From the sequence record NC_020079.1: a DNA stretch of 64,000 nucleotides. One strand, 5' to 3'. Every line of letters begins with the position of its first letter. Position 1 is the first letter of the stretch. Shown piece after piece: positions 27,927-28,012 of this stretch. The position numbers were made by a program, and so were the translations under genes. The DNA is from Escherichia phage phAPEC8. The notes beneath the pieces are model-generated. The model did no database searches and had not been told where the DNA came from. It saw only the letters and a list, made by a program, of their open reading frames with translations.

Positions 27927-28012
27927 GATGAGTTGGCTGAATGGTTTAAGCGGCGGACTGTTAATCCGTGTTCGAAAGAACGATATAGGTTCAAATCCTA
28001 TACTCATCGCCA
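27927..28012 (+). tRNA. class II (long variable arm) tRNA whose anticodon loop reads CT-GTT-AA (Asn-like); identity uncertain
   Basis: Acceptor GATGAGT/ACTCATC, T-arm ATAGG-TTCAAAT-CCTAT, 13-nt variable hairpin, CCA; best-paired anticodon stem gives GTT. Confidence 0.5.

Follow-up and report, generated by a model that had tools for sequence, protein, structure and literature searches.

In bacteria, long variable arms are restricted in textbook accounts to the tRNAs for leucine (Leu), serine (Ser), tyrosine (Tyr), and selenocysteine (Sec), where the arm forms part of what the synthetase recognizes. The tRNA for asparagine (Asn) is known in another connection: AriB, which belongs to the PARIS system, cuts E. 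coli tRNA-Asn(GUU), one of its secondary targets, between positions 40 and 41, its second subunit contacts U16-U17 in the D-loop, and phages challenged by PARIS are rescued by the tRNA-Asn of phage T5 (PMC12409363). Here we describe a tRNA-Asn gene with a long variable arm in a stretch of 64,000 nucleotides (nt) of Escherichia phage phAPEC8 (NC_020079.1), which is called below the window and which comes from a phAPEC8-like E. coli myophage (Phapecoctavirus, Stephanstirmvirinae). The explanation that we favor, with a probability of about 0.75, is that this gene encodes a functional phage tRNA-Asn, probably charged by the host asparaginyl-tRNA synthetase (AsnRS) and decoding AAC/AAU, with an extra hairpin maintained by selection; the part of this account that is least certain is what the arm is for.

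The gene was called by ARAGORN as tRNA-Asn (gtt), with its ends exactly at 27927 and 28012 on the + strand, and the Rfam model RF00005 scored 62.0 bits over 27927–28009 (E = 4.8e-11 for the whole window; gathering score, 29). The RF00005 alignment contains only standard stem pairs, none of which was flagged, and the cloverleaf is complete (acceptor stem of 7 bp, D arm, anticodon stem of 5 bp, 7-nt loop with U33, and canonical T arm fitting GGUUCRANUCC), with a 12-nt insertion in the variable region and with GUU at positions 34–36 at the top posterior probability. The minimum free energy (MFE) fold of the single sequence is a cloverleaf with a fifth hairpin, the shuffle z-score of this fold being modest (−1.7). 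In phage ASO2A, which is 97% identical, the same gene is annotated by tRNAscan-SE as tRNA-Asn-GTT. The gene and its parts are as follows.

27927–28012, + strand: tRNA-Asn(GUU) gene, 86 nt, with a long variable arm and an encoded CCA (ARAGORN; Rfam; fold; ASO2A annotation).
27927–27933 with 28002–28008, + strand: acceptor stem, seven Watson-Crick pairs, GAUGAGU / ACUCAUC.
27936–27951, + strand: D arm, three pairs plus G13.A22; UG (U8-G9) lies between the acceptor and the D arm.
27953–27969, + strand: anticodon arm GCGGA-CUGUUAA-UCCGU, with the GUU anticodon at 27960–27962.
27970–27984, + strand: variable region, 15 nt, consisting of the 4-bp stem GUUC/GAAC with a GAAA tetraloop (27970–27981), then unpaired GAU (27982–27984).
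27985–28001, + strand: canonical T arm, AUAGG-UUCAAAU-CCUAU.
28009, + strand: discriminator G73 (from the sequence).
28010–28012, + strand: encoded CCA.

An earlier note on this DNA had described a tRNA with canonical acceptor, T arm, and CCA, a structured long variable arm, and GTT as the best-paired anticodon. This description is borne out: ARAGORN and RF00005 both identify a true tRNA, the one well-paired anticodon stem gives GTT in ARAGORN and in the covariance alignment alike, the acceptor has seven Watson-Crick pairs, the T arm is canonical, CCA is encoded, and the arm is present in the covariance alignment and in the MFE fold. The 13-nt variable hairpin of that note is a hairpin, but the region measures 15 nt (a 12-nt hairpin and 3 unpaired nt). 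The readings Leu(TAA) and Tyr(GTA) were ruled out, since ARAGORN and the covariance alignment both place GUU at 34–36; the covariance fold thus yielded a tRNA with GTT, and neither a TAA or GTA anticodon nor a non-tRNA, which were the outcomes that the earlier note had set against its own reading. The alternative that it offered, a non-standard fold, proved to be an accurate description, as this is an Asn tRNA bearing a class II-type arm. The class I architecture, with its variable loop of 4–5 nt, is departed from here (15 nt with a 4-bp stem), but it is a descriptive trait of tRNA-Asn and no known determinant of AsnRS. The gene is therefore a genuine phage tRNA with an Asn anticodon and a class II-type arm.

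The amino acid carried by this tRNA was assessed in the light of the identity elements published for E. coli, where the determinants of AsnRS are G34, U35, and U36 together with G73, a set that can be transplanted into other tRNAs (PMC9976931). The window tRNA carries this set (GUU anticodon and G73), and its 17-nt anticodon arm is identical at 17/17 positions to that of E. coli tRNA-Asn, the host sequence having been verified in 5,425/5,426 genomes. Its first acceptor pairs are G1-C72 and A2-U71. G73 occurs in 82/86 long-arm and 107/110 short phage Asn tRNAs, the background in other phage tRNAs being 20%; here and below, counts out of 86 refer to the matches listed from a long-spacing scan of IMG/VR with at least 120 loci. 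The distributions of the 1:72 and 2:71 pairs are the same in long and short phage Asn tRNAs. As for the synthetases that deal with long arms, G73 is an anti-determinant for the leucyl- and tyrosyl-tRNA synthetases (LeuRS and TyrRS), which both depend critically on A73, and the seryl-tRNA synthetase (SerRS) ignores the anticodon and reads the size of the extra arm (the major element), G73, and acceptor pairs, G1-C72/G2-C71 being conserved in bacterial tRNA-Ser (PMC9976931). Discriminator A was found in 72/72 phage Tyr and 137/139 phage Leu tRNAs, and the window tRNA lacks it; with tRNA-Ser it shares the long arm and G73, and it lacks G2-C71, the Ser-type arm geometry, and a Ser anticodon.

The bodies of the long-arm tRNAs were also classified using a profile in which the anticodon arm, variable region, and discriminator were masked; controls were assigned correctly in 68–92% of cases for Asn, Tyr, Ser, Leu, and threonine (Thr), and in 41% for lysine (Lys). 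Among four candidate classes, the 86 masked long-arm bodies were assigned to Tyr (39), Asn (37), Ser (7), and Leu (3), and the masked body of the window tRNA fits no class well. Long-arm Thr(UGU) tRNAs show G1-C72/C2-G71 in 12/12 cases, as do 51/57 of the short ones. Since the isotype signatures are kept, the long-arm tRNAs retain identity marks matching their own anticodons. The mismatch between a class II body and an Asn anticodon which the earlier note had put forward did not hold up against the full AsnRS set, the host-identical anticodon arm, G73, A2-U71, the non-Ser arm geometry, and a body that is not specifically Leu-, Ser-, or Tyr-like. Judged by these identity rules, the window tRNA is most likely charged by the host AsnRS.

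The long-arm design is widely distributed in phages. A BLAST search with the 86-nt query found relatives in 714 phage records, 224 of which cover at least 80% of the query, and the window gene itself is 96.5–100% conserved in 65 records. Asn(GUU) genes of 83–86 nt with a variable hairpin are present in Justusliebigvirus Bas61, Seunavirus PVP-SE1, the T4-like Moonvirus Merlin, the T5-like Epseptimavirus and Tequintavirus, Novosibvirus, and Proteus phage PM135, and in the BASEL collection long-arm Asn tRNAs are carried by Bas27, Bas28, Bas30, Bas32, and Bas33. In IMG/VR, a pattern scan combined with local ARAGORN calls found at least 87 distinct long-arm Asn(GUU) tRNAs, with variable regions of 12–22 nt (15 being the commonest), and a scan with class I spacing found at least 113 distinct short ones; both forms are therefore common in phages. 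Among 100,044 bacterial and archaeal genomes (one per species), 92 pattern hits were obtained, and in 23 of these ARAGORN called an Asn(GUU) gene. Long-arm Asn tRNAs account for 7 of the hits, mostly on small contigs of metagenome-assembled genomes (MAGs), and the remainder are ordinary Asn tRNAs matching by chance spacing or non-tRNA repeats. None of 5,426 complete E. coli genomes contained a match to the window gene. The long-arm Asn form is thus strongly phage-enriched: hundreds of phage genomes carry it, among them those of phAPEC8-like, rV5-like, T5-like, and T4-like phages, and it extends over at least five families as well as many lineages that are uncultured. Long and short Asn(GUU) genes occur together on 16 contigs, in about ten of which they are adjacent (e.g., L025, L058, L063, L066, L091, L108, L111, L116, L123, and L127).

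Some loci retrieved in these scans show features of their own. At L025, L108, L111, and L103, the discriminator of the long copy is U and not G, which makes its identity less certain than that of the window gene. A Flavobacteriales MAG contig of 11 kb that had been binned as bacterial (L299, JALVDN010000438.1) carries long-arm Lys(UUU), isoleucine Ile(UAU), glutamate Glu(UUC), and Asn(GUU) tRNAs together, and resembles a tRNA cluster of the phage type, most of the class I tRNAs being armed. In the genome of Denitrificimonas caeni, more than 12 dispersed pattern matches (L251–L262 and L289) combine an anticodon arm and a T arm with long spacing, and these copies may be a repeated tRNA-derived element.

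In the searchable full-text literature, in which the coverage of subscription journals is thin, no description was found of a tRNA-Asn with a long arm, or of phage tRNAs of class I that have one; an older description may exist. What appears to be new here is the arm on the Asn isotype and the phage family that shares it; the gene itself was already annotated, and its likely decoding role is ordinary.

The pairing of the arm is conserved across distant relatives. Compensatory double changes are seen at each of the four variable-stem pairs in an alignment of 14 relatives taken from different phage families, where 100% of the cells are paired; the five-helix structure is 98.9% paired in the same alignment, every helix covaries across families, none of 500 shuffles reached the observed value, and sliding the partners abolished the signal. 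RNAalifold independently predicted the same structure, including the variable helix. The variable loop is usually a GNRA tetraloop, GAAA being present in 31 of the 52 four-base loops. The variable stem is, on this comparative evidence, apparently under selection that keeps it paired. When the arm geometry was compared among tRNAs of the same phage loci, the variable stem of phage Ser tRNAs was mostly 4–7 bp long, with 0–1 unpaired nt before the T stem in 97/121 and G2:C71 in 119/121, whereas that of the long-arm Asn tRNAs was 3–4 bp long in 73/86, with 3–4 unpaired nt before the T stem in 67/86 and G73 in 82/86. In phage Tyr tRNAs the stem is mostly 3–4 bp long, 3 unpaired nt precede the T stem in 35/62, and A73 is present in all. 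The short stem and the 3–4 unpaired 3' nt therefore make the long-arm Asn geometry Tyr-like. As regards the origin of the window gene, derivation from the adjacent tRNA-Tyr gene by duplication and an A36-to-U change was considered and found unsupported, as no special similarity to this neighbor exists; the acceptor-end signature is that of ordinary Asn tRNAs, with U1-A72 in 48/86, and some members have an E. coli-Asn-like D arm.

Structured long arms are not confined to Asn. They were also found in phage tRNAs for Thr(UGU), methionine or isoleucine (Met/Ile, CAU), Ile(UAU), Ile(GAU), cysteine (Cys), tryptophan (Trp), Glu, glutamine (Gln), Lys(UUU), glycine, histidine, proline, and phenylalanine; examples are IMG/VR loci L018, L044, L052, L056, L077, L099, and L111 (among L008–L247), and the 87-nt Thr(UGU) of Bas33 (L353, 18775–18861). 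Asn(GUU) is by far the commonest of the armed class I isotypes, followed by Thr(UGU), Met/Ile(CAU), Ile, Cys, Trp, Glu, Gln, and Lys(UUU). Arms on the other class I isotypes co-occur with long-arm Asn (49/734 vs. 8/403 unique tRNAs; odds ratio, 3.5; p = 3e-4), the most frequent isotype being Thr(UGU), the other target of Toprim tRNases (9/36). An 86-nt tRNA of phage PVP-SE1 with a Lys (UUU) anticodon arm (L003, 1354–1439) has an extra hairpin at a different place, GAC-GCAA-GUC between the D and anticodon arms; it is labeled tRNA-Lys in the record and "???" by ARAGORN.

The mechanism that we propose is the following. The host AsnRS would charge the window tRNA via the GUU anticodon and G73, and the charged tRNA would decode AAC/AAU as Asn in phage translation. 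The synthetases that handle long arms would reject it: G73 would block LeuRS and TyrRS, and the short stem, the 3–4 unpaired 3' nt, and A2-U71 would set it apart from tRNA-Ser. The arm might sterically shield the tRNA from defence enzymes that grip the anticodon stem and the core, such as AriB, and a shielded tRNA would keep phage translation running once the host tRNA-Asn has been destroyed. A specific role of the arm is favored by its enrichment in phages, its recurrence in lineages that are unrelated, the compensatory changes, the long/short pairs, and the co-occurrence of arms on several isotypes, and this is the weakest link in the argument. That the role is steric shielding from host tRNA-targeting nucleases is our best guess, though a tentative one, the odds being against it; the broader idea that long arms shield several isotypes from tRNA-cleaving or tRNA-modifying immune effectors, each tRNA keeping the identity set of its cognate synthetase, is likewise doubtful.

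What is known about these nucleases bears on the shield in several ways. Positions 36–41 of the window tRNA read UAAUCC, the sequence published for the site at which AriB cleaves E. coli tRNA-Asn, and the D-loops of the window tRNA and of the other long-arm tRNAs differ from that of E. coli tRNA-Asn. Shielding is geometrically plausible, since the variable arm leaves the core at nt 44, which is 3 nt from the AriB cut site and lies between the two predicted contact regions of AriB. The sole Asn gene of Bas33 (HildyBeyeler) is intact and of the long-arm type (86 nt), with the UAAUCC site and a D arm nearly identical to that of the window tRNA. Bas33 was rescued from PARIS by T5 tRNA-Lys alone, while Bas34 needed T5 tRNA-Asn as well, "despite" having a tRNA-Asn of its own (PMC12409363). 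The Asn gene of Bas34 (SelmaRatti, MZ501103; L352, about 10599–10681) is of the long-arm type, although annotated as a 77-nt tRNA-Asn; its acceptor stem has 3/7 mismatches (GGGUCGU vs. ACCCGCU), ARAGORN made no call, and it is probably defective, which would account for the need for T5 tRNA-Asn. Bas34 can therefore not serve as a counter-example to shielding, its own Asn gene being broken in the acceptor stem. The results on the two phages bear on shielding indirectly, and are consistent with an intact long-arm Asn tRNA with a host-like site being able to sustain infection under PARIS.

In the case of the OLD tRNase, expression of the long-arm Thr(UGU) of Bas33 restored plaques (bioRxiv 10.64898/2026.07.10.737580), so that, in a class I isotype, a tRNA with a long arm does function in vivo; the phage tRNA supplements the host tRNA, and the nuclease is not inhibited (same preprint). 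The arm goes uncommented in the preprint, and the word "variable" is absent from the main texts of PMC12409363 and bioRxiv 10.64898/2026.07.10.737580. Neither the rescue obtained with T5 tRNA-Asn nor the observation that this tRNA could not be turned into an amber suppressor (T5 GenBank record) transfers to long-arm tRNAs, because it is a short class I molecule (78 nt) with a changed anticodon stem (UAAGUU at 36–41).

Several points weigh against the favored explanation or against shielding. The charging step rests wholly on inference from identity rules. AsnRS is a class IIb enzyme, which approaches from the variable-loop side as in the complexes of the aspartyl-tRNA synthetase with its tRNA, and the arm could hinder it. 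The long arm and G73 are core SerRS determinants, and some serylation may take place. Covariation indicates no more than that an arm, where there is one, has to pair, and says nothing on its function. Resistance, if real, need not stem from the arm, given that the D-loop differs as well; T5 and Bas31 escape with a short Asn tRNA that has a mutated anticodon stem, and T4 and T7 need no tRNA-Asn under PARIS (PMC12409363). Lastly, the short Thr(UGU) of Bas32 resists OLD as well as that of Bas33 does (bioRxiv 10.64898/2026.07.10.737580); the arm is therefore dispensable for OLD resistance.

The alternative that survives best, though we consider it unlikely, is that the arm has no specific role: it would be an insertion that is tolerated, or the remnant of a past recombination with a class II tRNA, and would either be kept paired only against misfolding or lend generic stability in the absence of host modifications. 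Long arms are tolerated by the ribosome and EF-Tu in class II tRNAs, nuclease escape works without an arm in T5 and Bas32, and the bodies and D arms of the family are heterogeneous (Tyr-like in 39 cases, Asn-like in 37). A neutral insertion would, however, be expected to be lost often and to be present in bacteria too, whereas the form, nearly absent from cells, recurs in five or more phage families and in numerous lineages known from uncultured phages; the stem shows compensatory change, long and short Asn genes lie side by side, and arms on other isotypes co-occur.

An identity mismatch, in which the tRNA would be a substrate of SerRS (or, less likely, of TyrRS or LeuRS) and insert Ser or another residue at Asn codons, is very improbable. 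It is true that bacterial SerRS takes no account of the anticodon and depends chiefly on G73 and the long arm (PMC9976931, PMC7609411), and that allo-tRNAs with odd anticodons are serylated (PMC5389517); moreover, T5-like members of the long-arm Asn family have G1-C72 and G2-C71, and a few members from uncultured phages have U73 and adjoin a normal Asn tRNA. But the window tRNA has A2-U71 where nearly all the phage Ser tRNAs (119/121) have G2:C71, its arm is Tyr-like and not Ser-like, G73 is an anti-determinant for LeuRS and TyrRS, and the signature of the acceptor end and discriminator is that of ordinary Asn tRNAs. In addition, most of these virulent phages have no other Asn tRNA, and, their proteins being Asn-rich, proteome-wide missense incorporation would be harmful.

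There is equally little to be said for a decoy which, using a copy of the host anticodon arm as bait, would occupy host tRNA-targeting or tRNA-modifying enzymes. The anticodon arm is indeed host-identical at 17/17 positions, including the AriB site, competition by viral tRNAs was raised as a possibility by the authors of the PARIS study (PMC12409363), and a conserved, non-decoding RNA3-like RNA adjoins the Asn gene. A decoy would nevertheless not need the full acceptor stem, G73, CCA, and canonical T arm that are retained here; the OLD case is one of supplementation and not of nuclease inhibition, and the gene is the sole source of tRNA-Asn in an Asn-rich phage. A pseudogene or prediction artefact in a tRNA-rich region deserves next to no credence: the Bas34 relative has a disrupted acceptor stem and the fold z-score is only −1.7, but the score is 62 bits, the helices are intact and all covary, and the gene is 96.5–100% conserved in 65 records.

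The Asn gene belongs to a tRNA cluster at 27143–29148 comprising at least 12 tRNA genes; this 2.3-kb cluster matches 296 phage records, many of them 95–97% identical, and the matching records annotate tRNA-Asn. The local order is Ser(UGA), Ser(GCU), Tyr(GUA), Asn, an RNA3-like element, and Thr(UGU). The first of these is a tRNA-Ser(UGA)-like gene of 91 nt (27529–27619, + strand) with an odd D arm, which was missed by ARAGORN and by the Rfam search at the gathering threshold and is 100% identical to the tRNA-Ser-TGA annotated by tRNAscan-SE in ASO2A; the count is at least 12 and not 11 because this gene was added. The CAU tRNA at 27143–27217 (+ strand) was called Met by ARAGORN, and Ile (CAT) by tRNAscan-SE in ASO2A. 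In the Thr(UGU) gene of the window (28103–28177, + strand), positions 36–41 read UAAUCC, i.e., C41 is present where the E. coli target of AriB has A41; a change of the A41-to-C41 type lowers the cleavage of tRNA-Lys by AriB (PMC12409363). The spacers at 27710–27836 and 28178–28260 (+ strand) fold far better than shuffled sequences (z = −3.8 and −3.9, respectively), the second being a long imperfect hairpin with GUUCGAAAGAC that resembles the Asn variable hairpin. The phage is AT-rich (GC content, 38.9%), and in its long open reading frames Asn codons amount to 57 per 1000 codons; an ordinary translational demand for Asn decoding also applies. Two further features belong to this part of the window.

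27491–27520, + strand: promoter-like site, TTGACA-18-TAGATT with TG, upstream of the Ser(UGA)-Ser(GCU)-Tyr-Asn-RNA3-like-Thr sub-cluster; this is a positional suggestion, such sites being no commoner than expected by chance in the region.
28020–28097, + strand: RNA3-like, tRNA-like element directly 3' of the Asn gene, homologous to T5 "rna3".

The RNA3-like element combines an acceptor-like stem and an irregular central hairpin with a T-arm-like helix whose loop is 8 nt long, and lacks CCA. In the T-arm-like helix, 3/5 pairs covary, and the conserved block is UGUAGAGUUAA..AAACC. Homologues were found in T5 (L248, 13878–13950, − strand), Bas61 (L002, 1586–1664), and SHSML-45 (L007, about 1562–1640). 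In T5, "rna3", a stable RNA, likewise follows tRNA-Asn directly according to the T5 annotation, so that the Asn gene and the RNA3-like element form a pair which is common to distant phage families, whether the Asn tRNA is of the long-arm or the short type.

Asn, Thr, and other tRNAs with an arm that is carried by hundreds of phage genomes, and almost never by cells, appear to be built so as to avoid the three synthetases that read such arms. If the arm protects against PARIS-type defences, it would be a new structural mechanism in the arms race between phages and bacteria over tRNAs, and a shield used on several isotypes would be a structural route of immune evasion apart from the point-mutation route described so far. 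It could also explain published puzzles, such as the need of Bas34 for an additional tRNA-Asn. In practical terms, annotation pipelines label the long-arm genes as plain tRNA-Asn, and the designers of orthogonal tRNAs could make use of arm geometries that are rejected by all the synthetases of class II tRNAs.

Compared with the host tRNA-Asn (asnT/U/V/W of E. coli), the window tRNA has the same GUU anticodon, CUGUUAA loop, 17-nt anticodon arm, and G73, as well as a canonical T arm and a 7-bp acceptor. In the host tRNA, which belongs to class I, the variable loop is 5 nt long (AUGUC), the D stem has 4 bp, and the first acceptor pair is U1-A72, whereas the window tRNA has a structured variable region of 15 nt, a 3-bp D stem with G13.A22, U8-G9, G1-C72, and A2-U71. 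With the class II tRNAs (Leu, Ser, and Tyr) it shares the variable stem-loop, a 3-bp D stem with a mismatch of the G13.A22 type, and G9, its arm geometry being that of tRNA-Tyr; it differs from them in its GUU anticodon, in having G73 and not the A73 of Leu and Tyr, and in having A2-U71 and a short arm where tRNA-Ser has G2-C71 and a long one.

The phage tRNAs known to evade nucleases are T5 Lys, Thr, and Asn in the case of PARIS AriB, phage Thr(UGU) in that of P2 OLD, and T5 Tyr in that of retron-Eco7. Like them, the window tRNA is an isoacceptor of a host tRNA cleaved by AriB, and it is clustered with Tyr and Thr(UGU), Bas61 carrying Lys(UUU) as well. The known escapees carry point substitutions, located either in the D-loop or at the cleavage site and close to it, whereas the window tRNA, the resistance of which is putative, keeps the cleavage-site sequence of the host, adds an arm, and has a different D-loop. 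The allo-tRNAs (Mukai et al., 2017; PMC5389517) resemble it in having a long arm and anticodons outside the Leu, Ser, and Tyr sets, some of them being present in phages, but they combine acceptor and T stems of 8/4 or 9/3 bp with a Ser or Ala identity. The window tRNA, with its 7-bp acceptor and 5-bp T stem, is therefore not a member of that group, and carries instead the Asn identity set.

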